Notes under the pieces: model-generated
What the model saw: only the letters and a program-made list of their open reading frames with translations
Told to the model about the DNA's origin: nothing
The model's database searches: none
Program-made: the position numbers and the translations under genes
Origin: Minisyncoccota bacterium
GTDB lineage: Bacteria; Patescibacteriota; Minisyncoccia; Phycocordibacterales; PALSA-1337
Length of the DNA: 64,000 nucleotides
NCBI GenBank assembly: GCA_041666915.1
Contig: JBAYFZ010000003.1
Span: 22,394 to 86,393, forward strand
Reading direction: 5' to 3'
Part shown: positions 10,342 through 64,000 of the stretch, piece after piece
Layout: each line of letters begins with the position of its first letter
How positions within the stretch are numbered: position 1 is the stretch's first letter

Positions 10342-10349
10342 TACCCGTG

Positions 10350-43765: not shown

Positions 43766-43817
43766 CAGCCGAGATTTCGGAAAAACAGAGACATGTCTCT
43801 CGAAAGGGTAGGGAATT

Positions 43818-43842: not shown

Positions 43843-43914
43843 ATTATAGTTTATTAATGTTTAAATATTTTATATGGCTCTAATTCGTTCCGGATGTCAG
43901 ACATCAGAAAAGTG

Positions 43915-45498: not shown

Positions 45499-45516
45499 AT
45501 ACCGTATAGATTAACA

Positions 45517-45768: not shown

Positions 45769-46224
45769 AAAATTAAAGGTTAATAAACATTGATAATAGT
45801 TATTAAATATATATAAATTGAATAAAATGTAATCTAAAATTATGCAAATTCTGTCTAAATCGTATTAATGTTTATAAAGGGTAAAATAAGATAGAAAATT
45901 TTAATAAAAATTCATGATCAACTTTTAGCTTTACGTTTATAAGTTTAACATATTTATTAAGGTGCAACTCTTAAAAATGTGCATAAAGCCCTATAAACGA
46001 TTTTAAAGCCAAGTTTTGAATTGAAATTATTGTCTACTTGTAAAACCATCATATTTATTTATATCACACCTTATAATATTAGCCGTATATTTATTGTGTG
46101 AGTACTATTTATATACTAAGTTTATCCCTTCCTGATTAAAACAGGTCTCTACACGATCTAGTCGCCCGACTCTTTTAAGTATTGATATATCTTTCCCTAT
46201 AAATGAAATTACAGCCTCTGAGAT

Positions 46225-46247
46225 TTACGGAGGTTACACCTCCGGAA
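46225..46247. repeat. REP copy in inverted orientation, within the AT-rich 45769-46350 control region
   Basis: ttacggaggttacacctccggaa (loop tta/cac, the reverse of gtgtaac). Confidence 0.7.
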
Positions 46248-46350
46248 AAATTACTACATACCTTTTTTTATTTCTGTTTTATAATTTGTTGTCCACAGTT
46301 TTCCTGAATATTTTCGTTAAAGATTACGATATAATGATTAGCGAACCAAT

Positions 46351-47526
46351 ATGAAAGATAGCTTTATTATTGAAGGTAAAAAATACATCTCGTCTAGACG
46401 AGCTTCCGAAATCTCGGACTATGCTTCTGATTACATCGGACAACTTTGTCGAGCAGGAAAGTTGGATTGCAAAATGGTCGGACGTGCATGGTTCATTACC
46501 GAAGAGTCTCTCAGTCTACACAAAACAAATGTTCTCCAAGATGAAGTTGTCAGAAACAGGATTGAAAATCTCCGTGGAAAGAAAAATAGGAACTTGGTTG
46601 TAAGCTCAGAAGCAATTAAGACTTCCGCTTCTACACAGACTCAGACTTCAACCAATGTTGTAACAGTTACAAACTCCTCAATAGTTGTTAGTTCAAATCC
46701 TGTAATATCAAATCAACAAGCTCCTGTTGTTTCGGGGTCTACTCCTGCACAATCCAAAGTTTCTGGTTCATCATTTGTTTACACTTCTGATGAAAGGCCA
46801 TTGTTACCAGTATTGAAGAAGCCTGTTACACCAGTTGCGAATGTTTCTAAGAATAAAAAAATACTTTCATTCTTATCAAAGAATGAAAGTAAATCAGCTG
46901 TTACAAAAAATAGATCAGCTAGTGAGATCGCTGGAAAAGTTACAAAGTCTCTCAAGAAGTTAACTACAGTAGGAAAACCTATCATCTCATATCCAGAACT
47001 TACTCGTTCAATAATTTTGAGACGTGCACTTGCTTCAGCTCTAGTAATCATGTTCTTTATCGGTATGGGTACGATGACTTTCAATATTTTCAATAGTGAA
47101 GAAGTCTCGGTCGCAACCAATGCTTCTAGTTCTCCTAGTGTTGCATCGGGATCGGCCAGAGCAAATGTTTACGATGTGATAATGGTTGCTACTTCTTTTG
47201 TTAAAAATGGATTTGGCAATATTGCATCTTTGTTTACAAAAACATCAAAACTCACTCTCAACGATACATCTCCGCCAGATGGTTTTGGTGGTAGTCAAGG
47301 ACTATCACCAAATGGTTTAGCAGTCACATCATCAAGTGGTTCGGATAGTGTAGATGAAGCGGTTAAACAAAAGATTAAGGGTTCGTTTTCAGATGAAGTT
47401 GAAGTTAGTCCAGATGAGAGTGGTACAGCAGGTGTGATCACTCCAGTGTTTAGAGAGTCAAAAGGAAAAGATTTTATTTATGTAATGGTTCCGGTAGATG
47501 GTAAGGGGGCAAGCGTGACACCGTAA
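46351..47526 (+). CDS. Membrane-tethered protein: N-terminal Xis/HTH_17-like DNA-binding domain, S/T-rich linker, single TM, extracytoplasmic C-terminal domain
   Basis: N-terminus: KKYISSRRASEISDYASDYIGQLCRAGKLDCKMVGRAWFITEESL, which is an HTH_17 pattern. TM: ILRRALASALVIMFFIGMGTMTF at about aa 215-237. No known domain after the TM. Confidence 0.45.
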   Translation: MKDSFIIEGKKYISSRRASEISDYASDYIGQLCRAGKLDCKMVGRAWFITEESLSLHKTNVLQDEVVRNRIENLRGKKNRNLVVSSEAIKTSASTQTQTSTNVVTVTNSSIVVSSNPVISNQQAPVVSGSTPAQSKVSGSSFVYTSDERPLLPVLKKPVTPVANVSKNKKILSFLSKNESKSAVTKNRSASEIAGKVTKSLKKLTTVGKPIISYPELTRSIILRRALASALVIMFFIGMGTMTFNIFNSEEVSVATNASSSPSVASGSARANVYDVIMVATSFVKNGFGNIASLFTKTSKLTLNDTSPPDGFGGSQGLSPNGLAVTSSSGSDSVDEAVKQKIKGSFSDEVEVSPDESGTAGVITPVFRESKGKDFIYVMVPVDGKGASVTP

Positions 47527-47579
47527 AGTTTATCAAAAGACATAATGAGCCCTCTATTATAAAGATTTAAGGTAAAAAT

Positions 47580-48257
47580 ATGAAAAAAAATATTATCAGT
47601 GCAATATTGGAAATAGGAATAGGATTCTTTGCAATCTTCTGGATATTCCTATTTTTAGAACCAGCGATATTACAGGGTGCCCAGAACACCTTCACTATCG
47701 CGCAAACAGTCTCCAAAGAGATTTCCTTCACGACACCAGGGTCCAATGTAACCCTTTCTCCTTCTTTGGGAGGTTTGACTGGGGGTACAGCAACAGGCGA
47801 AACGCAGATAGTGGTGACTACTAACAGTAGTCTTGGGTACATGATGACTATCATGGCTAGTTCATCGGTAGGTATGATCGGTAATGCTAGTTCATCCAAT
47901 TCTATTCCAGCTTATGTAACAGCTACAGCAGGTGTTCCAGATTTTAGTTTTACTGTTCCAGCCAATAAGGCATATTTTGGTTATTCAGTTGAAGCGTCTA
48001 CGACTGCTGACCTAGCAACTTCTTTCAAAGACGCTGCTAGTGCTTGTGATTCTGCTGGTGGAAGTGATACTGCTGACAAATGTTGGATAGCAGCAACTTC
48101 AACAGCGTATACGGTAGTCAATAGAACTTGGCAGACGCCAGCTTCTGGAGCAACAACTACTTTGAAATTTAGAGTTACTATCAATGCCAATCCAAGTCCA
48201 GTTATCCCAGATGATACTTATGTTGCTACAACGACACTTACAGCGACTGCAAATTAA
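47580..48257 (+). CDS. Secreted/anchored beta-rich protein of unknown function (paralog of 49363-50178; WxL-like candidate)
   Basis: N-terminal hydrophobic signal/anchor MKKNIISAILEIGIGFFAIFWIFLF. Shares blocks with the downstream paralog (VTLSPSLGGLTGGTATGETQIVVTTNSS... / ...TTTLKFRVTINAN...TYVATTTLTATAN). Confidence 0.45.
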   Translation: MKKNIISAILEIGIGFFAIFWIFLFLEPAILQGAQNTFTIAQTVSKEISFTTPGSNVTLSPSLGGLTGGTATGETQIVVTTNSSLGYMMTIMASSSVGMIGNASSSNSIPAYVTATAGVPDFSFTVPANKAYFGYSVEASTTADLATSFKDAASACDSAGGSDTADKCWIAATSTAYTVVNRTWQTPASGATTTLKFRVTINANPSPVIPDDTYVATTTLTATAN

Positions 48258-48261
48258 AAAT

Positions 48262-49311
48262 ATGAAAAAAATCACGATTATAAACAAATTGAATACTGTC
48301 AATCTGAATAAGGTGCTAGCGATCCTTGCAATATTTGTAGTCGTAGTCGGTGTCTCCAATATGGTGTTGGCAAAAGTAGAAACATCCACCACGACAAGTC
48401 CTGTTACAGAAAAAGCAGTAGTCTCTTTTGAAACTTTGCCAGAAAATACAGTATTCAATGATTTTGTTGTTGGTCCAGGAAAAGTCCAGATAGATATTGC
48501 TCCTGGAGAATCAAAAACTTTTGAACTTACTATTGCGAACAGATTAGGTACAGAGAAAACTTTTTCAATCGTAGAAGAAGATTTCGTCGGCTCAAATGAT
48601 CCAGACAAAACTGTTGTCTTGTTGGGTAATGACCGTGGCCCATATTCGCTCAAGGATTATTTGAAGATAGGTACAAGTTCAATAGACATTCCTCATGCTG
48701 TAAAGTCTCGCGTCTTGATAACTGTATCTGTTCCTAAGAATGCTCAGCCAGGTGGTCTATATGGAAGTGTTGTCATCGGTACCGTGAGTAAGGCTGGTGA
48801 CAATTCTAGTTCAACCGGAGTCAATACAACTAATCCAATAATCACTCGTATAGGTACTTTGGTTTTTGTGAGAGTTGCTGGTGCAGTCAAAGAAAGTGGT
48901 GAGCTTACAGGTTTTATATTAGCTGGCAATCACAAGTTTATTTCTGGAGGAGAGCCTGTAGTCTTTGATCTTTTGTACAAGAATTCAGGAAATATTCACC
49001 TCAATCCAAGTGGAACAATAACTATAAACAATCTGCTTGGTTCAAATGTTGGAAATATAAAAGTTGAACCATGGTTTGCTATGCCAAATTCACTTCGCTT
49101 TCGTGAGGTTGAATGGAAAGCACCTTTTCTCTTTGGAAGATACACAGCTCATGCGGTCATAGAGAGAGGTTACGGTGACCTCAAAGATGAGATGAGTGTC
49201 ACATTCTGGATCGTGCCGTGGAAGATGATGTTGATGGTGATAGCGGGTCTGGTGGTTTTTATAGGATTAGTGAGATGGATATTCAAGAAGTTCAAGATAA
49301 CGAGAAAGTAG
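48262..49311 (+). CDS. Cell-surface protein with N-terminal signal peptide, two beta-sandwich-like regions and a C-terminal TM anchor plus basic tail (DUF916/DUF3324-like architecture)
   Basis: Signal AILAIFVVVVGVSNMVLA. APGESKTFELTIANR looks like a CARDB/DUF916-like strand. C-terminal WKMMLMVIAGLVVFIGLVRWIFKKFKITRK. The track ORF at 48184 overlaps the upstream gene; the ATG at 48262 follows its stop. Confidence 0.4.
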   Translation: MKKITIINKLNTVNLNKVLAILAIFVVVVGVSNMVLAKVETSTTTSPVTEKAVVSFETLPENTVFNDFVVGPGKVQIDIAPGESKTFELTIANRLGTEKTFSIVEEDFVGSNDPDKTVVLLGNDRGPYSLKDYLKIGTSSIDIPHAVKSRVLITVSVPKNAQPGGLYGSVVIGTVSKAGDNSSSTGVNTTNPIITRIGTLVFVRVAGAVKESGELTGFILAGNHKFISGGEPVVFDLLYKNSGNIHLNPSGTITINNLLGSNVGNIKVEPWFAMPNSLRFREVEWKAPFLFGRYTAHAVIERGYGDLKDEMSVTFWIVPWKMMLMVIAGLVVFIGLVRWIFKKFKITRK

Positions 49312-49362
49312 AAGGAAGAGGTAAGAGTTAAGAGGTAGGAGGTAAGAGTTAAGAAAGAAGCA

Positions 49363-50178
49363 ATGAACAAAAATTTCATTAAAAACTTAAGGAAAAATTC
49401 TTGTGATGTCGGATATCACAGCAAGTTTACCGTCTTAATCGTTACTGCCTTTTTTGTAGTTTCAATCTTTGGTCTATTGAATGTTGTCAACGCAGAGGTT
49501 ATGTCTAGCACAAATTACAAACTTGAAAATGACAGTATCAATTTTGGTGGAGGACGTGCCACTTCTACTTCTTATGTCATTGAAGATACTGCCGGAGAAA
49601 TTGCAACAGGTATGTCGTCTAGTACCAATTACATTATGAAAGCTGGTTATCAACAGACTCAAGATATCTACACAGTTTCAGTCACGCAATCTTCAAATGT
49701 AACAATGTCTCCTTCATTCGGAGGTGTTACCGGAGGTACAGCCAATGGACAGACATCCTTTACTGTAACTACCGACAATCCTGCTGGTTATTCAGCGACG
49801 ATCGCAGCAACTATGTCTCCAGCACTTAGGACATCGGCAGATAGTTTTACGGATTATGTTCCAGCTGGTGCGGTCCCTGATTTTACTTTTACGAACGCTT
49901 CAACAAATTCTTCTTTTGCCTTTACTCCAGAGAGTACTGATTTGGATGTTGATTATGAAGATTCTGGTGGAGTTTGTGGGGTTGCAGGAAGTGATACTGC
50001 AGATGCTTGTTGGAATGGTTTATCAACGACAGGAAAGACGATACTAAATAGAACTTCATCAAACAATCCATCTGGTACAGCGTCAACGATAAAGTTTAGA
50101 GCGGAATCAGGGAGTAATCATATACAAGTAGACGGAGTTTATATGGCAACGACAACGATTACGGTAGTGGCATTGTGA
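49363..50178 (+). CDS. Secreted beta-rich protein, paralog of 47580-48257
   Basis: Signal peptide TVLIVTAFFVVSIFGLLNVVNA. VTMSPSFGGVTGGTANGQTSFTVTTDNPAGYSATIAATMS. C-terminal ...TIKFRAESGSNHIQVDGVYMATTTITVVAL. Confidence 0.45.
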   Translation: MNKNFIKNLRKNSCDVGYHSKFTVLIVTAFFVVSIFGLLNVVNAEVMSSTNYKLENDSINFGGGRATSTSYVIEDTAGEIATGMSSSTNYIMKAGYQQTQDIYTVSVTQSSNVTMSPSFGGVTGGTANGQTSFTVTTDNPAGYSATIAATMSPALRTSADSFTDYVPAGAVPDFTFTNASTNSSFAFTPESTDLDVDYEDSGGVCGVAGSDTADACWNGLSTTGKTILNRTSSNNPSGTASTIKFRAESGSNHIQVDGVYMATTTITVVAL

Positions 50179-50234
50179 GGGTAAGGGATTAGAGGATAGA
50201 GAATTAGGGATTAGAAAAAGGGGGCAAAGAAGCA

Positions 50235-53200
50235 ATGAATAAAAATTTTATTAAAAACTTAGGAAAAAATATCATCAAGGTTGCACCTCGATGTTTTGTT
50301 ATCTTTACTTTAATTATTTCTTTCATTGTTTCTCCTTTGTCAGTTTTTGCCGTTCAGTCTACATTTACAACTTCTCTAACTACTACTGGAGTTGCTACAA
50401 CACCACCGGCAATACCTTCCAATCTTTTGGCTACCGCAGTCTCTGATACACAGATTGATCTTTCTTGGACAGCTTCGGTTCCGACATTCTACACAGTTAC
50501 TGGTTATAGGATTTTCCGTGATTCTGTATTTTTGGCCACAACTAGTTCAGTGGTTTATTCCGATACAGGTTTGACTCCAGAGACAGCTTATTCATATACA
50601 GTAGAAGCTTTTGATTCAATTATTCAATTGTCTGGACAGTCTGCCACTTCTACAGCTACAACTACAGCAACACCAGTTGTTCCTCCTGTAACTCCTCCAG
50701 TAACACCACCTTCTTCTGGTGGAGGAAGTTCGGGATCTTCAGTGATCAATATCACTGATATTAAGGTCGTCGCTGGAACAAATAATGCAAATATTTCATT
50801 TAAGACCAATGTATCAGCTCAGACGAAAGTCCAGTGGGGATTCTCAAATGATTTTGAAATCGGTTCCCTTCAAAATATTTTTTATGGAAAAGAACATTCT
50901 CAAATGATAAATGGTCTTGTTGAAGGTTTAACATATTTTGTCAGGATTACAGCTACCAATAGTCAAGGTATATCTACATATAGAGATATTTCTTTCAAGA
51001 CTGATCTTGCTGTAGTAGAACTTGGTCCTTTGCCAAACCCATCAAATTTCTTGGCACAAGCTACAGACAAAAATATCAATCTTACTTGGGACAATCCTAT
51101 AGATGAGAGATTCAATAATGTCAGAATAGTTCGTACAGAAGGATTTTTCCCAATAGATCAATTTGACGGTACTCCTATATATGAGGGTGATGGTCAATCT
51201 TTTGTAGATAAGAGTGCAAAAATCGGTACTACGTATTACTATGCTATTTTTGCAAAGGGTATAGATGGAGAATATTCTTCAGGTGCTTTGGCTCAAGCTC
51301 GCATCGCTCCAGCTGGAGAGATAGTAGTCTCGCCAACTTCAACAGATCCATTTATAAATATTCCAGAGTCAACAAATGTGGATCCGATGATCAAAAAGAT
51401 TACTTTGTCTGATTTTGAATTTATTCAAGAAGGGAAAAATCTTTCAGTTATCGGTAGTACGGTTGCTATAAAAGGTGGCGAAAATCTAACTATTCGTCTT
51501 GCATACAACAAAGTTCCTGAAATTTTGAAGACAGTTGCTTTCACCTTGCAAGATCCATCAGATAAAACAAAAGTCTTCCCATTTTTGTTACGTATCAATG
51601 CTGACAAGACTTACTATGAAGCGACTATTGGTGCTTTGGGTAAATCTGGTCGTTATGGAATGTCAGTAGTTATTTTGGATTATGAAAATAAAGGTTTGAA
51701 ACGTTTGAATGGAACTCTTGCTGCGCTTGCTTTCAATGCAATGCCTTTTGATTTCGGTAATAATTTTGATTTCTTGGGCATATTGTTGTTGCTCTTGGTA
51801 ATCATCCTTGTTATTTTGGCTATCGCATTGCTTCGTAAGTGGATCAATTATTCTCCAGAACATCAGACTGTAGACAAACCAAAAACTTCTGGAGTTACTA
51901 TTTCCAGAGATGTTTTCAATGCTATTTCAAAGATTTCAATATTTGTCTTGGTTGTTACGGCTTCATTCGGAATTCAACAAGCATTTGCTACTACTTTCAA
52001 TCCAGAGATAAATTATCAAGGTAAATTGACCGATAGTGTTGGTTCAAATGTTGCCAATGGTTCATATAGTATTCGTTTCAAACTTTATACGACCTTGTCT
52101 GGAGGTTCACCTATTTGGACTGAGACATGGTGTAACACTTCAACTTGTGATGGTTTGGGTACAGGTGCGGATAGTAGAATAACTTTGACTAGTGGATTAT
52201 TTAGCACCATGCTTGGAAGTACGACTGCTTTAGATGGCATTGATTTCAATCAGCCTCTATATCTCGGTGTTGAGATCGGAGGTTCTGGAGCAACGGCTTC
52301 ATGGGATGGGGAAATGTCACCTCGTAAGATTCTCGGAGCTGTCCCTTCCGCATTTTATTCCGCAACTTCTACGGTGGCTCTTTCTGCAAATTCTGCTGAC
52401 ACCTTATCTGGATTGAATTCTTCACAATTCCTTCGCTCTGATATACAAAATGCTACTTCATCATCTTCAACTTTCTTCAGTGTCTTACAATCTGGTGCTG
52501 GTAAGATTGCAGAATTTTTTGGGAGCGCAGCACAAAGTGTCTTTTCAATTTTATCAAATGGTAATGTCGGAGTCGGAACAACTACTCCATCATCTAGGTT
52601 TAATGTTTATGGTGACGTATCTTTCCAAACTCCATCAAATTCAGCCACAGCTTTTCAGATACTAAACTCGGCCACCAGTTCGGTTTTCTCTGTAGCTACT
52701 ACAGGCTTTGGTACTACTACTTTAGCTGGTCTAACTATTTCTGGTTCAGCTACTTCTACCTCTAACGTAGGTTGGAATATCTCCACGGGATGTTTTGCAG
52801 TCAACGGTGTCTGTTTGAGTGGTGCAGATGGTACGGCCAGTTCCACTCTATTATCTGATACCAACACATGGACAGGTTTGAATGTCTTTGGTTATGCAAG
52901 TACCACTCAGATCAGTTCAACAGGAAATGCTTATCTTGCTACGACTGGTGGGAATGTTGGTATCGGCACCACTTCGCCATTCGCAAAATTTGCAATCAAT
53001 CCAATTGCTGGTGATGGGGCGTCATTCGTCATTGGTTCTTCTACTAGAACAGATTTTATAGTTACAAATGAAGGAATGATTGGGGTTGGAAGCACGAGCC
53101 CTTCTGCAATTTTCAGTATCTTAGGACGAAACGGCAAGACACAAGGTACGGCGGAAACTAGGATTGCACCAACAGCTCTCTATGTTCAAGGAGGAACCGG

Positions 53201-56200
53201 TGGTGGAGGATCTTCGATCCCTGGGGGTAAAGGAGCGGATATTATCCTTATCGCTGGTAATGGAGCAAGTTCTGCTTTAGGAGATGGTAACGGAGGTAGT
53301 TTAACATTTACGGCCGGTAATGGTGGTGCTACTGATGGGAGTGGTGTTGGTGGAAATGTAACAATAAATCCAGGTCTAACTGGAGGTGGAGGTAATGGTA
53401 AAATTGTCTTAGCTGATTTGCGAGGTAATGTTGGAGTTGGTACCACTTCACCATTCAGTAAACTTTCAGTTTCTACTCCTGCTCAACAAAGCGGATCATT
53501 ACCACTCTTTACAGTTGCTTCTACAACGAGTGCCTCGCTACTTACGGTTCTTGGGAATGGCAATGTGGGGATTGGTACGGCGGTGCCTACAAGTGTTTTA
53601 GATGTTAATGGAAATATAAATGCTACAACCATGATAGCCGGTACTCATCTACTTGTTCAGAATACAGGAATATATTATGACTCGGTTTCCAATGGAGCGT
53701 ATTCTTTTGCAAATTCTGGTGTTGATCTTGCTCTCAAAACAGCCTCTGTCGGCACAGTTATGACGATTAAAGATGCCGGCCTCGTAGGCATCGGCACCTC
53801 TACCCCATATTCCAAACTCTCCGTCTGGGGTTCTTCAACAGGAACAAACAGAATGTTTGAATTAACCAACAGTGCTTCAACAACACTAATGAGTATGTTG
53901 GAAAATGGTACAGGTTATTTCTTGGGTAATATCGGAATTGGCACCACCACTCCAGGTACTATTCTTTCTCTTGGAAATACCGGTGATAGCACCATCAATC
54001 TTTCAGTTACAGCCACTTCAACCTTTGGTACAGGAATAAATCTACGAACAGGTTGCTTCGCTGTAAACGGAACTTGTGTCGGTGGTGCAGATGGTACTTC
54101 AAGTTCTACTCTATTATCAGACACTAACACTTGGACAGGTTTGAATGTCTTTGGGTACGCAAGTACCACGCAGATATCTTCAACAGGTTCCGCCTATTTC
54201 GCAACAACTGGTGGGAATGTTGGAGTTGGTACAACTTCACCTTTCAGTAAACTTTCAGTTTCTACTTCTGCACAACAGAGTGGAACATTACCACTCTTTA
54301 CAGTTGCTTCTACAACGAGTGCTTCATTATTTACAGTTTTGGGAAATGGGAATGTGGGGATTGGGACTTCTACTGTTTCAGAAAAACTTTTTGTGGAAGG
54401 CAACATTGCTCCTTCAATGACTAACCTATATACCGCTGGTAGCTACACTCTAAATTCCGCTGTTGCTTCCGTAGCTAATATTACAGCTTCAGGAATCGCT
54501 AATTCAGATCTACTTGGTGTTAGTTCCGCTTCTGCTGGAGATGTGAATGGTGATGGTATTAACGATGTTATTATCGGTGCAACTGCTGCTGATGGTGCAG
54601 GTACCGATCGTGGTCAAGCTTACATCTTCTTTGGTTCAACCACTCCTAGGACAACATTTGCTCCTGCTTCTGCCGACGTTATCCTTTCTGGTTCAGAAGA
54701 TTCTGGTAGTTTTGGTACTAGTGTCGCCTCTGCTGGAGATGTAAACGGTGATGGATATGGCGATGTGATAGTCGGAGCTACTAATGTTGCTGGCGGAGGT
54801 TCATATCGTGGTCAAACATATATCTTTTATGGAGGCCCAAATTTCACAGGTGCAATAATTGCTTCTTCTGCAAATGTAATTATTTCCGGAGCGGCTGATT
54901 ATGATAGTAATGGTCAAGTTGTAGCTTCTGCAGGAGATGTAAACGGTGATGGATATGGCGATGTGATCATGACTGCATTGTCTGCTGATGATGGAGGTTT
55001 TGATCGTGGTCAAGCCTATATCTTTTATGGTAAGCCAAACCTTGCAAGTACATATACTACAGCAAATGCTGATGTTATTATTTCAGGAAATACCGATGGT
55101 GTTCAGATGGGTAATAGCGTAGCTTCTGTTGGAGATGTGAACGGTGATGGATATGGCGATGTGATCATTGGTGCACAATCTGCAGATGTTGGAGGTAATA
55201 ATCGCGGTCAAGCCTATATCTTTTATGGTAAGCCAAACCTTGCAAGTGCTTATTCAGCTTCTTCTGCGAATGTTATTGTCACTGGAATGGTAGATATGGG
55301 CTTTATGGGTATCAGTTCTGCTTCTGCTGGAGATGTGAACGGTGATGGATATTCTGACTTTATCATTGGGGCAAGTAGTGCAGCTGGTGGAGGTACTTCT
55401 CGCGGTCAAGCCTATGTCTTCTACGGTAAATCAAATTTAGCAAGTACATATTCTGCATCTTCCGCTAATGTAACTATTTCCGGAATCGCCAATAGTGATG
55501 CTCTTGGTTACAGTGTTGCCTCCGCTGGAGATGTGAATGGTGACGGATATGGAGATATTATAGTTGGAGCAGTTGGTGCCGCTGGTGGAGGTACATCTCG
55601 CGGTCAAGCATATATTTTCTACGGTAAGTCTGATCTTTCAAGTACTTATACAGCTTCATCTGCAGACGTTGCTTTTTCAGGAATTGCCACTAGTGATGCT
55701 TTTGGTTCCAGTGTTACTTCTGCTGGAGATATAAATAATGATGGGTACTCTGATGTTATGGTTGGAGCATATGGTGCCGCTGGCGGAGGTACATCTCGCG
55801 GTCAAACATATATCTTTACCCCAACCGGCAATCGTTTCAAATCTATTTATGCACAAAGTGGTAGCTTTACAAAGGGAATACAACTAGGTGGTGGAATGTC
55901 AACGTTGAATGCTTACGGTCTTTCAAGCCTAAGTCAATTTTCATTAAACACGGCAGATTGGTCAATCAGTAAATCAGGAACTTCTTCCATGCAGAGTTTG
56001 ATAGTTTCTGGAAATGTTGGTATCGGTACAACTTCGCCATTCTCAACTCTTTCTGTTTCTACTCCTGTACAGCAGAGTGGATTGTTATCGCTCTTCACGG
56101 TTGCTTCTACTACGGGCGCTTCTCTATTTTCTGTCTTAGGCAATGGAAATATCGGCATCGGCACGACCACTCCGGGCACACTTTTATCTCTTGGAAACAC

Positions 56201-59200
56201 CGGCAACAGTACCATTAATATTTCGGCTACTGCCACTTCAACCTTTGGTACGGGAATAGATTTAAGAACAGGTTGTTTCGCCATTAACGGCGTCTGTTTG
56301 AGCGGTGCAGACGGTACAGCAAGTTCTACACTTTTGTCTGATACTAATACTTGGACAGGTTTGAATGTCTTTGGTTACGCAAGTACCACGCAGATCAGTT
56401 CAACAGGAAATGCTTACTTTGCAACGACTGGAGGAAAGGTAGGAGTTGGAACAACTTCGCCATTCTCAACCCTTTCTGTTTCTACTCCTGCACAACAGAG
56501 CGGGTCATTACCACTTCTTACAGTAGCTTCTACGACTGGTGCGACGCTATTAACTGTTTTGGGAAATGGGAATGTGGGGATTGGAACAATGAATCCAGCG
56601 TATCCATTAGATGTTAATGGAAGTGTGAACGCAGCCTCTTATAGAACAAGTAATGTGATTTCTCTTATATTAGCAAATTCTGCTATAAATATAGGAGATA
56701 CTTATGGAAGTACTTATCCTCTTGTAGTTAATGCTGGTGGTTCAGAAAGGATGAGAGTCTCGACTGGTGGCAACGTCGGCATCGGCACCACCTCTCCATA
56801 TTCCAAACTCTCCGTCTGGGGTGCTTCAACAGGAACAAACAGAATGTTTGAATTAACCAACAGTGCTTCAACAACACTCATGAGTATGTTGGAAAATGGC
56901 ACAGGCTATTTCTTGGGTAATATTGGAATTGGAACAACTTCACCATACGCGAAACTTTCAGTGGTTGGTCCGGTAGTGGCTGAATATTTCTATGCAACCT
57001 CCACAACAGCAACTTCAACATTTGCTGGTGGGCTTGATGTAGGAAATGGTGGACTTGTTTATGAGGCTTCTACAGGTATCACTTCAGCTTCTTCATTCCA
57101 AATGGGTAACTTAAGTTTTGATCTCAATGCAGGTGCTGTATCTTGGATAGATCTTCCAATAGATAGTAGTGCCCCAGCAAATACACCACAGAGTTACACT
57201 GCCAACTTGAACGGTTTGCCAATGCTCACTATCGGAGGTCTTTCTGATGGTGCTGGGAATATTATAAATGCTGGTATCGGAATCGGTACAACTACCTCAT
57301 ATTCCAAACTCTCCGTCTGGGGTTCTTCAACAGGAACAAACAGAATGTTTGAATTAACCAACAGTGCTTCAACAACACTCATGAGTATGTTGGAAAATGG
57401 CACAGGATATTTCTTGGGTAATATTGGAATTGGAACAACCACCCCAGGTACACTCCTTTCTCTTGGAAATACCGGCAACAGTACCATTAATATTTCAGCT
57501 ACTGCCACTTCAACATTTGGTACAGGAATAAATCTAAGAACAGGTTGCTTCGCCGTCAACGGAATTTGTGTCGGTGGTGCAGATGGTACAGCAAGTTCTA
57601 CTCTACTATCAGACACCAACACATGGACAGGTTTGAATGTCTTTGGGTATGCCTCTTCAACACAATTCACAACAACGGCTGATACATATCTTGCGACATT
57701 GGGAGGCAATGTTGGCATTGGTACGACAAGTCCTGTCAGTAAGTTTTCAGTTGATGGGACTTCTAGCTTTAGTGGCTACACTATCATTGGTGGAACATCA
57801 CTTATAGATAATTCAGTTCCTCTTAATGTCATAGCTGATGGTTATTTTGGTACAGCAGGTAAGATAGCAAACTTTATTTCCAATCAAGATTATGGACATG
57901 TGGGTATATTCAAAGATGATAATTCTCGCGGATTGTTCCTCGGTTACGGTACTGGTAATTTGCTAGCAGGTAATGATAATGATGCTTTTATACAGATTGG
58001 AGCCGCATCAAGTAGTCGTGGTTACCTCCATTTGGTTGATGGTGTAGGTGCTGGTTCTGATGGTCAATTCGGTCTAATGAGTCCTTATGTTCTCATTGGA
58101 GCTTCTACTGCAAATGGAAGTGGCTCAGTCTTACAAGTTGAAGGCTTGTCTACTCTTGTTGGTAATGTTGGTGTTGGAACGACTTCACCTTTGGCAAGAT
58201 TGGATGTTGCCGGAGTCTTGGGTTCTCAAGCAGATTTATTCAATGTTTCTTCAACGACAGCAACAGATATAGTCTCAAGTCTATTTAAAGTTTCTGCAAA
58301 TGGTAATGTTACTATCGGTTATTTGAATGGTTCTCTCCAAGCTGTCAACGGAGTAGTTTCTGCAACTTCAACACTTTCAATTGCTTATGGAGGTACAGGT
58401 ACATCTACATCTCCAACATATGGAAAATTACTTATGGGTGATGGTACTGGAAAATATGACTTAGTTGCAACTTCAACATTGGGAATTTTGGGTGCTAGTG
58501 CTATTGCATTGGGTACACCTGGTCAGATACCTTATTACTCTGCAAATTTGCAAGCAGTTTCTGCAACTTCTTCTATATTTATAAATCAGACAAATAGTTT
58601 TATTGGTATCGGTACAACTACTCCTACCTCAGCTTTGTCAGTCTTCAACGCTTCCGCTCCTCAATTCCAGCTCGCATATAACACGAGTAATTACATGAAT
58701 GTCGGGGTTTCTTCTACTGGTGGAGTTACAATGGCAGTCAATGGTTCTCTCGGAGGCTTTGCTATCACAAATCCTCAACCGACCGTTGTTGGTAGTGGTA
58801 CAGGTACAAATGCTCCTCTAGGTTTCTCTGTAGCCGGTGGTATCGGAGGAAATTCAAATGATACAAATATTGGTGTTGGTGGTATCGGTGGCGGTTTGCA
58901 ACTTACAGCTGGTGTTGGAGGTTCCGCAGGACTTTCTACTTTCTCAGAGACAGGTGGTGCTGGAGGTGCAGTATCTATGCTTGCTGGTGCTGGAGGTGCA
59001 ACGGCTTCTCCTAGTATTGATTTTATGTCTAGAGTTGCAGGTAACGGAGGTCTCATGACTTTGGCTGGTGGTGCTGGAGGTAATGCTTCAAATGGTGGTC
59101 TAGCAAGTTCTAATACTGCTGGTAATGGTGGAGCTTTCACTTTGAAAGGTGGTGCTGGAGGTAATGCTAGTGGTGCTACAACCAATAATGGTGGTGCTGG

Positions 59201-62200
59201 AGGGAGTCTATATATATCAGGTGGTGCTGGAGGTACAGGTTCTACTGCAAATGGTACTGCTGGTAATCTTTATCTCGGTTATGATTCTTCAAGCGCTCTT
59301 GGTAATGTTTATTTCGGCAATCAGGGTGCCTCGTACATTACAAGTACAGGGAATTTTGGAGTTGGTACCACTTCTCCTTTCAGTAAACTTTCAGTTTCTA
59401 CTTCTGCTCAACAGGATGGATCAACGCCACTCTTTACAGTAGCTTCTACTACAAGTGCTTCGTTATTTACAGTTTTGGGAAATGGGAATGTTGGGATTGG
59501 GACAAATAATCCAACAAAGCTTTTTATTGTCGCGTCTGGAGCAAACACAGTTATGAGTATGAATTCTTCGGGTCTATTGAATATAGCAACTTATCTTCAA
59601 CTTAATGGTGGAACCGCTGTTTCTTATAGTGGTACACAGTTACAGTTGGGTACTGGTTTTACTACGCAATATTTACCAGGCAACGTCGGCATCGGCACCA
59701 CCACTCCATTAGCCAAACTTAACATCTACGGCGACGTGGTTTTCCAGACTCCAACCAATTCAGCCACGGCTTTCCAGATACTGAACGCGGCTACCAGCTC
59801 GGTCTTCTCTGTAGCTACCACCGGCTTTGGCACTACTACTTTGGCTGGTCTAAATATCTCCGGTTCAGCTACTTCTACTTCTAACGTAGGTTGGAATATT
59901 ACATCCGGTTGTTTTGCCATTAACGGCGTCTGCGTAGGAGGTGGTGCAGGCGCAGGTGATGGTACAGCAAGTTCTACTCTTTTGTCTGATAATAATACTT
60001 GGACAGGTTCTAATATATTCAATAGTAATGTTGGAATTGGTACCACCTCACCATTCTCAACTCTTTCTGTTTCTACTTCTGCACAACAAAATGGAGCATC
60101 ACCACTCTTTACAGTAGCTTCTACGACTGGTGCGACGTTATTAACTGTTTTGGGAAATGGGTATGTTGGAATTGGTAAATCTAATCCAACGGTTGCTTTG
60201 GATGTGACAGGGGGAATATCTGCTAGTGGAAATATTGCTGCTGGTGGAGCCTTATATGCGGGTGGTGTTTACGGCTTGATATGGAATGGTCGTAGTAGTA
60301 TTTATTCAACTGCTGATGGTCAATTTTCTTTCTATAATAACGCTGGAACATCTTTTTCAAGAATTAATCTTGGAGGAACCACTTCAGCTTTTCCTGCAAT
60401 TGGGGCTTCTGGATCTAATCTTATAGTCCAGTCTGCTGATGGAACACTTGGCACTAATTTAGGAGTAGGCACCTCCTCCCCATACTCCAAACTCTCCGTC
60501 TGGGGTTCTTCAACAGGAACAAACAGAATGTTTGAGCTAACCAACAGTGCCTCAACAACACTTATGAGTATGTTGGAAAATGGTACAGGCTATTTCTTGG
60601 GTAATGTTGGAATTGGTACAACTTCTCCTTATGCAAAACTTTCAGTAGTTGGTCCAGTAGTGGCTGAATACTTCCATGCAACTTCTACAACAGCAACCTC
60701 AACATTTGCTGGTGGTTTTGATGTAGGTAGTGGTGGACTTACTTACGAACAGGGTTCAGGTATTACTTATATCAGTTCTCTACAGACTTCTAATTTCAAT
60801 TTTGAAACAAATGCAGGTATGGTCTCATGGGTAGATCTTCCTACAGATTCCAATGCTCCAAGCGGTACAGTCCAGAGTTATTCAGCAGGTCTAAACGGAA
60901 GTTCAACACTTACTATATATGGTATATCAGATGGTGCTGGTAATCTTCAATCTGATTGGCCGAGAGTATCTATCGGAGGTACATCTGCAGGTACGACTAC
61001 ACCTAGTTCAAAATTGACAGTTTTTGGTAATGGTACTGGAACAGGAGGAATATTTGAGCTTGTAGATAGTGCCTCAACAACACTTATGAAAGTTTTGAAT
61101 AATGGAAGTGTCGGTATCGGCACAACCTCTCCAGGTACTCTTCTTTCTCTCGGAAACACTGGAAACAATACAATCAACATCTCAGCTACTGCCACTTCAA
61201 CCTTTGGCACAGGAATAAACCTAAGAACAGGATGTTTTGCTGTTAATGATGTTTGTATAGGTGGCGGTGGTGGTGCAGGCGACGGCACATCAAGTTCTAC
61301 TCTACTATCTGATTACAACACATGGACAGGTTTGAATGTCTTCGGATATGCAAGTACCACACAGATCAGTTCAACTGGAAATGCTTACTTTGCTACAACA
61401 GGTGGAAAGGTAGGAGTTGGAACAACTTCACCATTCTCAACTCTTTCAGTTTCTACTTCTGCACAACAAGATGGAGCATTACCACTCTTTACAGTGGCTT
61501 CTACTACTGGAGCTTCGTTACTTACAGTTTTGGGAAATGGGTATGTTGGTATCGGAACAGCAAGCCCAACAAATGTTCTTGATGTCAGTGGAACATTCAA
61601 ATCTAGTGGCCAATCAATAGTCGCTGACGCCTTCCGTTTCTATACAGGCAACAGTGATGCTGGTACCTCATACAGTGATTTTAGAACAAATCCTGCAACC
61701 GGTAATGCAATACTTAGCGCAAAGTCTGGAGCTGTCTATTTCAACTACGATCACGGCAATCAAGGAGTCATCTTTTCAAACGGATCTCAAGCTACGGTAG
61801 CTACTATAAATAGTACTGGACACGCAGTGTTCTATGGTACGGGTGATAACTCATTTGCAGGAGAATTGGGCGTTGGTACAACCACTCCATATTCCAGACT
61901 TTCAGTTTGGGGGGCTTCAACAGGAACAAATAGGATGTTTGAATTAACAAACAGTGCTTCAACAACACTCATGAGTGTATTGGAAAATGGTACAGGTTAT
62001 TTCTCAGGAAATATTGGAATAGGAACAACCACCCCAGGTTCTATCCTTTCTTTGGGTGATACTGGCAGTAACACCATCAACATCTCAGCCACAGCCACTT
62101 CAACATTTGGCACAGGTATAAACCTAAGAACAGGATGTTTTGCTGTTAATGATGTTTGTATAGGTGGCGGTGGTGGTGCAGGCGACGGCACATCAAGTTC

Positions 62201-64000
62201 TACTCTATTATCTGATTACAATACATGGACAGGCTTGAATGTCTTCGGATATGCAAGTACCACACAGATCAGTTCAACAGGAAATGCTTACTTTGCTACA
62301 ACTGGTGGCAATGTCGGTATCGGTAGCACTTCACCATTTGCAAAACTTTCTATTCACGCCGGAGCAACTGATACTTATAACTCCACCTTGTTTGCAATCG
62401 CTTCTTCTACCAGTGCTTATGCCACAACCACTCTCTTTAGTGTCTTAGCAAACGGCAGTATAAGCATGGGTACTTCTACAGCAACGACTACTATCGCTGG
62501 TGGATTTAATGTTGGAAATGGTGGTCTTATCTACGAAGCTTACACAGGTATTACTTCAGCTTCTTCACTCCAAACAGGAAACTTCAATTTTGAAACAAAT
62601 GCCGGTGCTGTATCATGGGCAGAACTTGTCATAGATTCTGGCGCTCCTGCAAATACACCACAGAGTTATACTGCTCATTTGAATAGTGCGCCAATGCTTA
62701 CTATCGGAGGTCTTTCTGATGGTGGAGGTAATATTACAAATGCCGGAGTAGGTATCGGTACGACTTCTCCTTGGGGTAGTTTTGCAATCTCACCATTTAC
62801 AACCACATACCCAGCTTTCAATATTGGTACGACAACAGCAACATTCACTGGTTCATACTTTATGGTTAGCGGTACTGGAAATGTGGGAATTGCTACATCT
62901 TCACCATACGCAAAACTTTCTATCCAAGGAGCAACTTCTGGTACTACACCTTTGTTTGCAATTTCTACTTCAACCAATGCCTCACCATCTCTACAAATTG
63001 ATCAGAATGGACTTTTGACAATGAATACACCCGGAGCAACTTCTACTATCACTGGTAACTTACAGGTCATAGGCGGTTTCCGTGCAGACAATACCTATAC
63101 TGGTGATCTATTCTTCGCAAACAACTTCAGCTTCACTGAAGCACAACCTATCAATTCAACCACTACTCAGGCTTTGTATTTAAAGAGTCAAAAAGGCGAG
63201 AGAGTTTTGTCTATTGACGATCTAGGAAATGTAAATATTTCTGGAGACATTTGTTCAAATAATGTCACTTGTGTCAGTCAGTCATTGAGTAAATTGTCTG
63301 GAGATATGAGTTCTTTGGCTTCAAGTACAGCTGATATGCAAGCGGGTATTGATGGTCAGATCAAGACAACCTCTTCGTCAGTACAAAGTCTAGCCGACGC
63401 TATCGTAGCTTTGGATTTGAAAGTTGATGCAATATTAGCTTCAAGTACTTTGAATATGGAACTTCTCGTAGCTTCAACTAGCGCTACTGTTGCTTCAAAC
63501 TTGGCTTCAAGTACAGAATTTGTTACTGCTGTCTCTTCTTCAACAGCTTCTGTTTTGACTTCAAATCCTTCATTTGTTGCCGTTGTCGCAGAGGCGGTCA
63601 AAAATATTATTTCTTCAGCAGGTGATTGGGTCGTAGACAGATTTACGGCCAAGGTCGCTTATATCAATCGTGTTGAAGCAGGAACAGTCGCTATCTCCAA
63701 AGGTATGGAAATCGTAGATCAGGCTTCTGGTGCAGTATGGTGTGTAACTATCAAGAATGGTGATTGGAATAAGATTCAAGGTACATGTGCTAGTGTTCCT
63801 CTTCCAGAAGTTGCAACTTCAACAATACCAGTAGTTCCAGAGAATCCTGCGATAGTCACTCCAAATCCAGTAGTAATTCCAGTAGAACCTGTAGTTAATC
63901 CTATTCAAGCAAGTTCAACTCCTCCTGTTGTTGCAACGAGTACACCTCCAGTTTCTGAACCAATCCCAACTCCAGATCCAACACCATCTCCAATTACAGA
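50235..64000 (+). CDS. Giant repetitive fibrous surface protein (more than 4,580 aa in the window, 3' end beyond the window). It has a signal peptide, 2 FN3-like domains, an internal TM hairpin, seven FG-GAP repeats and many tail-fibre-like GNVGIGTTSP beta-helix repeats
   Basis: Frame 0 from the ATG at 50235 was read by hand up to about 57.4 kb with no stop; continuity to the window end is inferred from the recurring in-frame repeat blocks. N-terminal signal CFVIFTLIISFIVSPLSVFA. FN3-like LLATAVSDTQIDLSWTA...YSYTVEAFD. TM GILLLLLVIILVILAIALL, then a second hydrophobic segment ISIFVLVVTASFGIQQAFA. Seven FG-GAP repeats SAGDVNGDGYGDVIVGA...RGQAYIFYG (54.5-55.8 kb). More than 20 repeats of ...PFSKLSVST.AQQ.G.LPLFTVASTT.ASL.TVLGNGNVGIGT. 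Confidence 0.7.
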   Translation, partial: MNKNFIKNLGKNIIKVAPRCFVIFTLIISFIVSPLSVFAVQSTFTTSLTTTGVATTPPAIPSNLLATAVSDTQIDLSWTASVPTFYTVTGYRIFRDSVFLATTSSVVYSDTGLTPETAYSYTVEAFDSIIQLSGQSATSTATTTATPVVPPVTPPVTPPSSGGGSSGSSVINITDIKVVAGTNNANISFKTNVSAQTKVQWGFSNDFEIGSLQNIFYGKEHSQMINGLVEGLTYFVRITATNSQGISTYRDISFKTDLAVVELGPLPNPSNFLAQATDKNINLTWDNPIDERFNNVRIVRTEGFFPIDQFDGTPIYEGDGQSFVDKSAKIGTTYYYAIFAKGIDGEYSSGALAQARIAPAGEIVVSPTSTDPFINIPESTNVDPMIKKITLSDFEFIQEGKNLSVIGSTVAIKGGENLTIRLAYNKVPEILKTVAFTLQDPSDKTKVFPFLLRINADKTYYEATIGALGKSGRYGMSVVILDYENKGLKRLNGTLAALAFNAMPFDFGNNFDFLGILLLLLVIILVILAIALLRKWINYSPEHQTVDKPKTSGVTISRDVFNAISKISIFVLVVTASFGIQQAFATTFNPEINYQGKLTDSVGSNVANGSYSIRFKLYTTLSGGSPIWTETWCNTSTCDGLGTGADSRITLTSGLFSTMLGSTTALDGIDFNQPLYLGVEIGGSGATASWDGEMSPRKILGAVPSAFYSATSTVALSANSADTLSGLNSSQFLRSDIQNATSSSSTFFSVLQSGAGKIAEFFGSAAQSVFSILSNGNVGVGTTTPSSRFNVYGDVSFQTPSNSATAFQILNSATSSVFSVATTGFGTTTLAGLTISGSATSTSNVGWNISTGCFAVNGVCLSGADGTASSTLLSDTNTWTGLNVFGYASTTQISSTGNAYLATTGGNVGIGTTSPFAKFAINPIAGDGASFVIGSSTRTDFIVTNEGMIGVGSTSPSAIFSILGRNGKTQGTAETRIAPTALYVQGGTGGGGSSIPGGKGADIILIAGNGASSALGDGNGGSLTFTAGNGGATDGSGVGGNVTINPGLTGGGGNGKIVLADLRGNVGVGTTSPFSKLSVSTPAQQSGSLPLFTVASTTSASLLTVLGNGNVGIGTAVPTSVLDVNGNINATTMIAGTHLLVQNTGIYYDSVSNGAYSFANSGVDLALKTASVGTVMTIKDAGLVGIGTSTPYSKLSVWGSSTGTNRMFELTNSASTTLMSMLENGTGYFLGNIGIGTTTPGTILSLGNTGDSTINLSVTATSTFGTGINLRTGCFAVNGTCVGGADGTSSSTLLSDTNTWTGLNVFGYASTTQISSTGSAYFATTGGNVGVGTTSPFSKLSVSTSAQQSGTLPLFTVASTTSASLFTVLGNGNVGIGTSTVSEKLFVEGNIAPSMTNLYTAGSYTLNSAVASVANITASGIANSDLLGVSSASAGDVNGDGINDVIIGATAADGAGTDRGQAYIFFGSTTPRTTFAPASADVILSGSEDSGSFGTSVASAGDVNGDGYGDVIVGATNVAGGGSYRGQTYIFYGGPNFTGAIIASSANVIISGAADYDSNGQVVASAGDVNGDGYGDVIMTALSADDGGFDRGQAYIFYGKPNLASTYTTANADVIISGNTDGVQMGNSVASVGDVNGDGYGDVIIGAQSADVGGNNRGQAYIFYGKPNLASAYSASSANVIVTGMVDMGFMGISSASAGDVNGDGYSDFIIGASSAAGGGTSRGQAYVFYGKSNLASTYSASSANVTISGIANSDALGYSVASAGDVNGDGYGDIIVGAVGAAGGGTSRGQAYIFYGKSDLSSTYTASSADVAFSGIATSDAFGSSVTSAGDINNDGYSDVMVGAYGAAGGGTSRGQTYIFTPTGNRFKSIYAQSGSFTKGIQLGGGMSTLNAYGLSSLSQFSLNTADWSISKSGTSSMQSLIVSGNVGIGTTSPFSTLSVSTPVQQSGLLSLFTVASTTGASLFSVLGNGNIGIGTTTPGTLLSLGNTGNSTINISATATSTFGTGIDLRTGCFAINGVCLSGADGTASSTLLSDTNTWTGLNVFGYASTTQISSTGNAYFATTGGKVGVGTTSPFSTLSVSTPAQQSGSLPLLTVASTTGATLLTVLGNGNVGIGTMNPAYPLDVNGSVNAASYRTSNVISLILANSAINIGDTYGSTYPLVVNAGGSERMRVSTGGNVGIGTTSPYSKLSVWGASTGTNRMFELTNSASTTLMSMLENGTGYFLGNIGIGTTSPYAKLSVVGPVVAEYFYATSTTATSTFAGGLDVGNGGLVYEASTGITSASSFQMGNLSFDLNAGAVSWIDLPIDSSAPANTPQSYTANLNGLPMLTIGGLSDGAGNIINAGIGIGTTTSYSKLSVWGSSTGTNRMFELTNSASTTLMSMLENGTGYFLGNIGIGTTTPGTLLSLGNTGNSTINISATATSTFGTGINLRTGCFAVNGICVGGADGTASSTLLSDTNTWTGLNVFGYASSTQFTTTADTYLATLGGNVGIGTTSPVSKFSVDGTSSFSGYTIIGGTSLIDNSVPLNVIADGYFGTAGKIANFISNQDYGHVGIFKDDNSRGLFLGYGTGNLLAGNDNDAFIQIGAASSSRGYLHLVDGVGAGSDGQFGLMSPYVLIGASTANGSGSVLQVEGLSTLVGNVGVGTTSPLARLDVAGVLGSQADLFNVSSTTATDIVSSLFKVSANGNVTIGYLNGSLQAVNGVVSATSTLSIAYGGTGTSTSPTYGKLLMGDGTGKYDLVATSTLGILGASAIALGTPGQIPYYSANLQAVSATSSIFINQTNSFIGIGTTTPTSALSVFNASAPQFQLAYNTSNYMNVGVSSTGGVTMAVNGSLGGFAITNPQPTVVGSGTGTNAPLGFSVAGGIGGNSNDTNIGVGGIGGGLQLTAGVGGSAGLSTFSETGGAGGAVSMLAGAGGATASPSIDFMSRVAGNGGLMTLAGGAGGNASNGGLASSNTAGNGGAFTLKGGAGGNASGATTNNGGAGGSLYISGGAGGTGSTANGTAGNLYLGYDSSSALGNVYFGNQGASYITSTGNFGVGTTSPFSKLSVSTSAQQDGSTPLFTVASTTSASLFTVLGNGNVGIGTNNPTKLFIVASGANTVMSMNSSGLLNIATYLQLNGGTAVSYSGTQLQLGTGFTTQYLPGNVGIGTTTPLAKLNIYGDVVFQTPTNSATAFQILNAATSSVFSVATTGFGTTTLAGLNISGSATSTSNVGWNITSGCFAINGVCVGGGAGAGDGTASSTLLSDNNTWTGSNIFNSNVGIGTTSPFSTLSVSTSAQQNGASPLFTVASTTGATLLTVLGNGYVGIGKSNPTVALDVTGGISASGNIAAGGALYAGGVYGLIWNGRSSIYSTADGQFSFYNNAGTSFSRINLGGTTSAFPAIGASGSNLIVQSADGTLGTNLGVGTSSPYSKLSVWGSSTGTNRMFELTNSASTTLMSMLENGTGYFLGNVGIGTTSPYAKLSVVGPVVAEYFHATSTTATSTFAGGFDVGSGGLTYEQGSGITYISSLQTSNFNFETNAGMVSWVDLPTDSNAPSGTVQSYSAGLNGSSTLTIYGISDGAGNLQSDWPRVSIGGTSAGTTTPSSKLTVFGNGTGTGGIFELVDSASTTLMKVLNNGSVGIGTTSPGTLLSLGNTGNNTINISATATSTFGTGINLRTGCFAVNDVCIGGGGGAGDGTSSSTLLSDYNTWTGLNVFGYASTTQISSTGNAYFATTGGKVGVGTTSPFSTLSVSTSAQQDGALPLFTVASTTGASLLTVLGNGYVGIGTASPTNVLDVSGTFKSSGQSIVADAFRFYTGNSDAGTSYSDFRTNPATGNAILSAKSGAVYFNYDHGNQGVIFSNGSQATVATINSTGHAVFYGTGDNSFAGELGVGTTTPYSRLSVWGASTGTNRMFELTNSASTTLMSVLENGTGYFSGNIGIGTTTPGSILSLGDTGSNTINISATATSTFGTGINLRTGCFAVNDVCIGGGGGAGDGTSSSTLLSDYNTWTGLNVFGYASTTQISSTGNAYFATTGGNVGIGSTSPFAKLSIHAGATDTYNSTLFAIASSTSAYATTTLFSVLANGSISMGTSTATTTIAGGFNVGNGGLIYEAYTGITSASSLQTGNFNFETNAGAVSWAELVIDSGAPANTPQSYTAHLNSAPMLTIGGLSDGGGNITNAGVGIGTTSPWGSFAISPFTTTYPAFNIGTTTATFTGSYFMVSGTGNVGIATSSPYAKLSIQGATSGTTPLFAISTSTNASPSLQIDQNGLLTMNTPGATSTITGNLQVIGGFRADNTYTGDLFFANNFSFTEAQPINSTTTQALYLKSQKGERVLSIDDLGNVNISGDICSNNVTCVSQSLSKLSGDMSSLASSTADMQAGIDGQIKTTSSSVQSLADAIVALDLKVDAILASSTLNMELLVASTSATVASNLASSTEFVTAVSSSTASVLTSNPSFVAVVAEAVKNIISSAGDWVVDRFTAKVAYINRVEAGTVAISKGMEIVDQASGAVWCVTIKNGDWNKIQGTCASVPLPEVATSTIPVVPENPAIVTPNPVVIPVEPVVNPIQASSTPPVVATSTPPVSEPIPTPDPTPSPIT

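Follow-up and report, generated by a model that had tools for sequence, protein, structure and literature searches.

A 4,642-residue predicted surface fibre of a Paceibacterota bacterium, with a shaft of repeated modules built from a unit like that of mosaic adhesive trimers and tail fibres

We analyzed a 64,000-nt window of DNA from a Minisyncoccota bacterium (contig JBAYFZ010000003.1, positions 22,394 to 86,393), the 3' part of which is occupied by a giant open reading frame (ORF) that begins at 50235 on the forward strand and remains open through the window end at 64000. The full product of 4,642 aa is probably a cell-surface fibre of a Candidatus Paceibacterota bacterium (Parcubacteria, candidate phyla radiation or CPR) that resembles mosaic adhesive trimer (MAT) and phage tail fibres and whose modules were amplified within the lineage; we put the probability of this reading at about 0.65. 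From its N-terminus, the protein would consist of an ectodomain containing a fibronectin type III (FN3) domain, a pair of hydrophobic segments, a conserved base domain, and a shaft of ~3,500 residues with 35 repeat units. The frame is uninterrupted from a stop at 50205, and the first ATG, at 50235, is preceded by a purine-rich stretch. The translated ORF is 100% identical over all 4,588 aa in the window to P0180, which is NCBI MFA6554524.1, [quoted passage not shown], of 4,642 aa. The final 54 aa of the product lie past the window end and form a Pro/Ala/Thr-rich tail.

The shaft (52560-63008; aa 776 to about 4,260) contains 35 copies of a unit of ~44 aa centred on G-N-V-G-I-G-T-T-S-P-x-x-K-L, in the wider form L-x-V-x3-G-N-V-G-I-G-T-T-S-P-x-x-K-L-x-V. 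A hidden Markov model of 26 of these units was compared with 177,635 PDB sequences and matched five chains only, all of which are C-terminal fragments of MAT fibres from Bdellovibrio bacteriovorus (Bd2133, Bd2439, Bd1334, and the 8OJN protein; E 4e-10 to 0.035). Each chain was matched at several sites, and the alignments cover 26-36 residues and include the strand before the loop, as in the example of Bd2133 (ISQAGNVGIGATAPTAKLEVAGT). MAT fibres are intertwined trimeric beta-helices in which capping loops with this type of motif recur. They end in S74 or diverse adhesive tips and sit on the predator surface, and at least one of them has been shown to bind glycans of the prey (Caulton et al. 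2024, PMC10769870). The fibres compared here are Bd2133, Bd1334, Bd2439, and Bd3182 (PDB 8OND, 8OML, 8ON4, 8OL4, and 8OJN). The shaft carries the feature by which a MAT fibre is recognized, namely beta-helix repeats with a capping-loop motif of the V-G-x-G-x-x-x-P-x-x-x-L type. Its units may form the rungs and "capping loops" of an intertwined trimeric beta-helix, as in MAT and S74-type tail fibres. Trimerization, surface display, and a role in adhesion or host recognition are inferred by analogy with the solved Bdellovibrio relatives.

The likeness to MAT fibres includes the predicted secretion, the modular "chimeric" build, and presumed carriage by a bacterium that lives on other cells; tips other than S74 also occur in the MAT family. 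[quoted passage not shown] However, the giant protein is ~4-5 times longer (4,642 vs about 1,000 aa), has an FN3 ectodomain and a putative transmembrane (TM) hairpin in the same ORF, contains a seven-blade FG-GAP propeller in mid-shaft, and ends in a Pro-rich C-terminal tail. The host is a monoderm-like CPR bacterium here, in contrast to the Gram-negative predator. The architecture is a distinct variant in its giant size, fused FN3/TM anchor, and inserted propeller.

The propeller, which the initial annotation of this DNA did not mention, is encoded by a tandem array at 54528-55817 with a 198-nt period and 68-77% nt identity between repeats. Pfam recognizes seven FG-GAP stretches (E 1.3e-45), and the array matches integrin alpha-V, IIb, and 5 (E ~5e-16). 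As in the integrin alpha-subunit propeller there are seven repeats with Ca-binding-type DxNGDGxxD loops, but here the propeller is set into the shaft of a bacterial fibre, without thigh or calf domains or a beta subunit.

From the repeat peptide, the initial annotation had proposed beta-helical fibres of the phage tail-fibre or S74-associated kind. This was right as to the kind of protein: in addition to the exclusive PDB match with trimeric MAT beta-helices, the shaft matches PHROG tail or tail-fibre families 9942, 18345, and 3269, and a Foldseek search of BFVD gave 64 matches at E <= 1e-3, many of them fibres from cyanophages and prasinoviruses whose annotation is Peptidase S74 or intramolecular chaperone. 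At least 321 stretches of IMG/VR contigs encode relatives of the shaft unit, the best being a 1,053-aa protein (L007) with the shaft repeat and a C-terminal Peptidase_S74. The association with S74 itself did not hold, since Peptidase_S74 (PF13884) has no match in the 4,588 aa in the window, nor in the complete orthologue described below, and the gene is chromosomal and not of a phage. The shaft repeat is of the same class as that of phage and giant-virus tail fibres with a C-terminal S74 chaperone (K1F endosialidase / T5 pb1 type; PHROG 9942, 18345), although identity to viral proteins is ~26-41% at best. Neither Pfam nor NCBIfam has a model that matches the shaft repeat; Pfam matches are limited to fn3 and FG-GAP, and the NCBIfam matches on the giant ORF are spurious or propeller-related. 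Another IMG/VR contig (L012) encodes a 1,337-aa repeat-protein relative and also, at 9251-10795, Cpn60/GroEL; this contig may be cellular or belong to a large phage.

The shaft is a mosaic of higher-order modules, W, S, L/Y, and V, that occur in shuffled order. The W module (49 aa, PYSKLSVWGSSTGTNRMFELTNSASTTLMSMLENGTGYFLG) is present five times, at 53778-53924, 56769-56915, 57270-57416, 60453-60599, and 61860-62006; the last is the most diverged, with 78-84% nt identity to the other copies over a 156-nt W segment. The S module (45 aa, GNVGVGTTSPFSKLSVSTPAQQSG..PLFTVASTT.ASL.TVLGN) is present seven times, first at 53424-53558 and then in copies of ~135 nt starting at 54213, 56010, 56433, 59349, 60024, and 61404. 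There are five L modules of 96-100 aa. The first (53925-54212, 96 aa) contains CFAVNGxC and SDTNTWTGLNVFGYASTTQISSTG, and the others lie at 56145-56432, 57417-57704, 61104-61403, and 62007-62306, accompanied by two diverged Y-type relatives at 52560-52949 and 59679-60023. The V module (~120-170 aa) has two copies, at 56916-57269 and 60600-61103, and a partial one at 62478-62765. A central block at 58326-59396 is unique and non-repeated, with Gly-rich GGxGG stretches. Gly-rich GGxGG / GGAGGN blocks occur within the shaft at 53200-53420 and 58800-59270, the second of these within the central block, which the orthologue shares colinearly. An antisense ORF of 174 aa within the giant gene (57194-57718, reverse strand) is probably a spurious by-product of repeat composition.

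The repeats themselves had been noticed in the initial annotation, an observation that is partly confirmed and an interpretation that is partly supported. The sequence CCATATTCCAAACTCTCCGTCTGGGG was found where it had been reported, at 53805, 56796, 57297, and 60480 with at most one mismatch and in a diverged fifth copy at 61887, and ACATGGACAGGTTTGAATGTCTTTGG at 52866, 54129, 56349, 57621, 61320, and 62223 with at most two mismatches; neither occurred in any of 100 shuffled sequences. The encoded peptide had also been given correctly (PYSKLSVWGSSTGTNRMFELTNSASTTLMSMLENGTGYFLGNIGIGTT). The extent and identity of the blocks, put at 150-300 nt and about 90-100%, had been overstated. Complete identity is not reached by any block of 150-300 nt, and in blocks of 150-475 nt identity ranges from 65 to 94%. 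The block around the first sequence is 141 nt long, with 93-98% identity among four copies and 84-89% to the fifth, and the second is just 68 nt between the ends quoted, with 79-96% identity. Self-BLASTN of 50-64 kb returned 67 off-diagonal high-scoring pairs; among those of at least 100 nt, four had at least 90% identity (best 163 nt, 94.5%). Long matches included 474 nt at 85%, 344 nt at 87.5%, and 909 nt at 73%, and the longest exact matches within the giant gene were 90, 82, 82, 55, and 50 nt.

A 113-kb contig of a metagenome-assembled genome (MAG) labelled Ca. Saccharibacteria (L003) encodes a 5,441-aa positional orthologue, preceded by a gene 65% identical to the one upstream of the giant ORF. 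The two giant proteins are colinear, at 45-80% identity, in their N-terminal 790 residues, in a central unique block (aa 2,700-3,050; the block at 58326-59396, with 66-72% aa identity), and in the C-terminal region, and not in the repeat-bearing stretches between these parts. All five W modules correspond to a single W in the orthologue, all V to one V, and all L to one L. The FG-GAP propeller is missing from the orthologue. Copies of W in the giant gene are 78-92% identical in nucleotides among themselves, vs 65-71% to the orthologue's W, while the orthologue has amplified other modules, with up to 96% nt identity. This pattern fits lineage-specific intragenic amplification. Near its C-terminus the orthologue has a Gly-rich block and a "GTDYAEMFPV…" segment (L003 15500-15900, aa about 4,870-5,000), both of which the window protein lacks. 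Two proteins with Laminin_G_3 / ConA-like lectin domains are encoded downstream of the orthologue (L003 17255-21237); the matching region here lies beyond the window end.

Divergence between the copies does not bear out a recent intragenic duplication of near-identical repeats, which the initial annotation had suggested. By the Nei-Gojobori method, synonymous divergence (dS) was 0.2-0.4 where W copies were closest, most S and L pairs ranged from 0.4 to above 1, and the ratio of nonsynonymous to synonymous divergence (dN/dS) between module copies was 0.05-0.3. These values indicate that the duplications are old, not recent on a population time scale, and that purifying selection has acted on the copies. 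The repeat peptide is near-invariant because selection acts on the protein.

Gene conversion, which had also been suggested, has some statistical support, limited to three copy pairs. Divergence between copies is patchy, and a GENECONV-like permutation of polymorphic columns identified significantly long agreeing tracts in these pairs. The strongest conversion-like signal was between the two 3'-most L modules (61104-62350), where the copies starting at 61104 and 62007 share a 90-nt exact tract (61215 = 62118) with 30 consecutive agreeing polymorphic sites (global p < 0.0005). The other pairs were the W copies at 53778 and 57270 (global p = 0.0115) and the L copies at 56145 and 62007 (global p = 0.015). 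The third W copy has separate 82-nt exact tracts in common with the first and with the second and is therefore a mosaic. The simplest reading of these tracts is that short-tract gene conversion may occasionally have taken place among modules. A diversity-generating retroelement, with its template and variable repeats, was also considered and was rejected because the mismatches are not adenine-specific and no reverse transcriptase was found among the ORFs scanned.

We propose that four or five module types could have been amplified and shuffled by in-frame intragenic segmental duplication after the split from the orthologue's lineage. Each module copy would then have been kept by purifying selection, and a few tracts of 50-90 nt may have been homogenized through gene conversion. 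By in-frame duplication, deletion, and conversion, the shaft would lengthen or shorten over evolutionary time. The product may be a long fibre, membrane-proximal and probably trimeric, that serves a presumably episymbiotic, ultra-small cell in adhesion or host recognition, with the FG-GAP propeller and the C-terminal region as possible binding surfaces. If extended like MAT fibres it would measure ~0.15-0.25 µm, the number of modules setting the length.

Several points weigh against this reading. Paralogues that are closer to each other than to the orthologue are also expected from concerted evolution alone. There is no precedent in the MAT paper (PMC10769870) for a seven-blade propeller amid a trimeric shaft. 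When 50,697 deposited phage genomes were searched by tblastn with a 330-aa stretch of the repeats, there was no match at E <= 1e-3, so the likeness to fibres of cultured phages is remote.

The gene could also be read as a programmed variation locus, along the lines suggested in the initial annotation, in which the repeats serve mainly for frequent RecA-type recombination, so that the fibre varies in length or antigenicity from cell to cell or strain to strain. The in-frame modules have exact tracts of 50-90 nt, exceeding typical minimal pairing lengths, and the conversion-like tracts are significant; module number is far from that of the orthologue, and high-identity internal repeats are common across the family. 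However, most copy pairs have a dS of at least 0.2, and many are near saturation, which is unexpected under frequent exchange. Only one independent assembly represents the same population, and it agrees at every position over 9,179 nt. We found no length variants, and the neighbourhood contains neither a dedicated recombinase nor silent cassettes. The differences in module number that we observed are between species only. We consider such a locus unlikely.

The shaft could instead be a monomeric beta-solenoid, or an Ig-like wall or S-layer-type protein, that shares just a short loop motif with trimeric fibres. AlphaFold2 (AF2) folded a shaft segment as a monomer with a predicted local distance difference test (pLDDT) score of 79 and a predicted template modelling (pTM) score of 0.49, and FN3 and FG-GAP domains are typical of monomeric adhesins. 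Against this, the MAT profile matches extend over 26-36 residues, pre-loop strand included, at several sites per chain, and no monomeric solenoid is among the PDB matches. This alternative seems to us distinctly unlikely.

The initial annotation had warned that the region would be fragile in assembly, and this proved to be the case. An independent Logan k=31 contig (L001, from SRR6484324) is 100% identical to 43711-52889 (9,179 nt), which confirms the first 2.6 kb of the giant gene, and it ends inside the first 32-nt exact repeat (52860-52891, identical to 57615-57646). Two related contigs (L002, 3.6 kb, and L004, 2.9 kb) lie wholly within such genes, and the orthologue has an N-run in its repeats. 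Such genes break short-read assemblies at the first exact repeats, and for this reason most database relatives are "partial". Since no exact match is longer than 90 nt, the repeats here are unlikely to have collapsed; in-frame mis-joins in the assembled repeat order are possible, as the ORF would survive chimeric joins at shared tracts. That the repeats as a whole were created, collapsed, or mis-ordered by short-read assembly is very improbable. The copies differ by 2-35%, too much for duplicated reads, usual reads are longer than any exact match between them, and the frame of 4,642 codons is unbroken, with an identical protein in NCBI, JGI, and ENA.

That the gene is a tail-fibre gene of a phage or prophage can be dismissed as highly improbable: the matches to PHROG tail-fibre families and viral S74 fibres are outweighed by the housekeeping and envelope genes on its flanks, a predicted signal peptide and TM segments in the protein, a positional orthologue with a conserved upstream gene in another MAG, and the lack of both an S74 domain and a tblastn match in deposited phages.

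The genomic context is that of a cell. The neighbours of the giant gene encode GatB, Obg, an AI-2E transporter, SecA, MurB, and a Wzy/TPR protein, and further upstream is a 30-kb block of genes for glycosyltransferases, methyltransferases, PMT-like enzymes, and a Wzt-type ABC transporter. Within 50 kb, the flanks had no gene for a capsid, terminase, tail, or integrase protein. Housekeeping and envelope neighbours without virion genes indicate a chromosomal, envelope-related region, and a prophage is ruled out by this context.

Proteins with this shaft unit form a very large and poorly named family. The shaft-unit profile matched 144,780 cluster representatives, 9,101 of them at E <= 1e-30, and the top 150 have 1.9-7.9 thousand residues with 21-92 units each. 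Of these 150, 56 had internal repeats that span 80 aa or more with an aa identity of at least 90%, which makes high-identity modules a family trait and the giant gene a typical case. The repeats are an ordinary feature of this family and call for no special mechanism. Named examples come from Paceibacterota, Roizmanbacteria, and Omnitrophota, and one of the best profile matches is a 6,681-aa protein from Omnitrophota; this taxonomic breadth among the long proteins is based on ten named proteins. Homologues found with domain-sized queries were short, mostly truncated proteins. The giant, repeat-rich surface proteins from Omnitrophota and other bacteria described by West-Roberts et al. (2023, bioRxiv 10.1101/2023.11.21.568195) are likewise multi-kiloresidue and secreted, with internal repeats that fragment assemblies, but they are far larger, other domain sets are stressed, and the terms tail-fibre, integrin, and FG-GAP have 0 occurrences in that paper.

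The main value of the finding is one of annotation. Little is known of how CPR bacteria (Patescibacteria) find and hold their hosts, apart from type IV pili and a few unnamed "adhesins" (PMC10633639). In the literature we searched, the motif string appeared in no paper, and among the papers listed none joined "mosaic adhesive trimer" with a CPR term. A link to the structurally solved shaft unit of MAT and tail fibres gives a concrete, testable annotation that extends to the relatives among the cluster representatives. More tentatively, ultra-small host-dependent bacteria (Paceibacterota, Roizmanbacteria, Omnitrophota) might carry a huge, essentially unannotated superfamily of MAT/tail-fibre-type giant fibres as host-recognition organelles, in which in-frame amplification and conversion routinely retune length and binding. 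The present protein would be an example, with five W, seven S, five to seven L, and three V modules and a captured integrin-like propeller. If true, this would be a cellular counterpart of phage tail-fibre mosaicism.

Outside the shaft, hydropathy analysis found hydrophobic segments exclusively in the N-terminal part of the giant protein. The first is signal-like (aa 19-40; 50289-50354) and is followed by an ectodomain (aa 41-505) that contains the FN3 domain (aa 61-129; 50415-50621; Pfam fn3 E 1.7e-8, with a match to chitinase A1 FnIII). The hydrophobic pair (51771-51989) comprises a TM helix at aa 513-533 and a segment at aa 565-585 that ends AFA/TT. From its sequence, the pair may be a membrane hairpin or an internal signal peptide ahead of the fibre; the arrangement is also present in the orthologue. 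The region 50235-51989 resembles a fusion, in which a signal peptide, FN3 ectodomain, and TM helix (aa 1-540) precede a second signal-like segment, and signal-peptidase cleavage after AFA could free the fibre from its FN3/TM anchor.

Directly behind AFA is the conserved fibre-base domain (aa 587-790; 51993-52604; INYQGKL...EMSPRK..VP.A), a beta-sandwich in the AF2 model (pLDDT 81.5). It has 118 database homologues, and nearly all of the named ones are "partial" proteins of Parcubacteria lineages; in several homologues the domain directly follows an ordinary signal peptide. Its fold had no significant match among viral models. At the other end, the conserved C-terminal region (63135-63998; ALADAIVALDLKVDA ... 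WCVTIKNGDWNK), which precedes the Pro-rich tail and is kept in the orthologue, contains no S74. It has no Pfam match, and the C-terminal 374 aa have no match in the PDB.

The gene upstream of the giant ORF, at 49363-50178 on the forward strand, encodes the secreted protein that is syntenic with the orthologue's locus (65% aa identity). The upstream ORF (49363-49389) and the giant ORF (50235-50261) share their first nine residues, MNKNFIKNL, and the orthologous giant ORF starts MNKVFIKL. The upstream gene is the last of four successive genes (46351-50178) for secreted or membrane proteins without Pfam or PHROG matches, and it at least is syntenic in L003. The ORFs at 47580-48257 and 49363-50178 have the motifs SPS.GG.TGGTA.G.T, AD(A/K)CW, and KFR in common, and the ORF at 48184-49311 has a C-terminal TM anchor. 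The cluster recalls those that encode WxL-type surface proteins.

Rfam and tRNA scans of the window gave no match. An ORF for an IS200-like Y1 transposase lies between Obg and GatB (43017-43628, reverse strand). The large glycosylation cluster spans 1-32700 and encodes GT1, GT2, GT4, GT10, GT11, and PMT_2 proteins, an FkbM methyltransferase, and a Wzt-like ABC ATPase. At the 5' edge of the window, a TraG/VirD4-like coupling protein is encoded at 7-1827.

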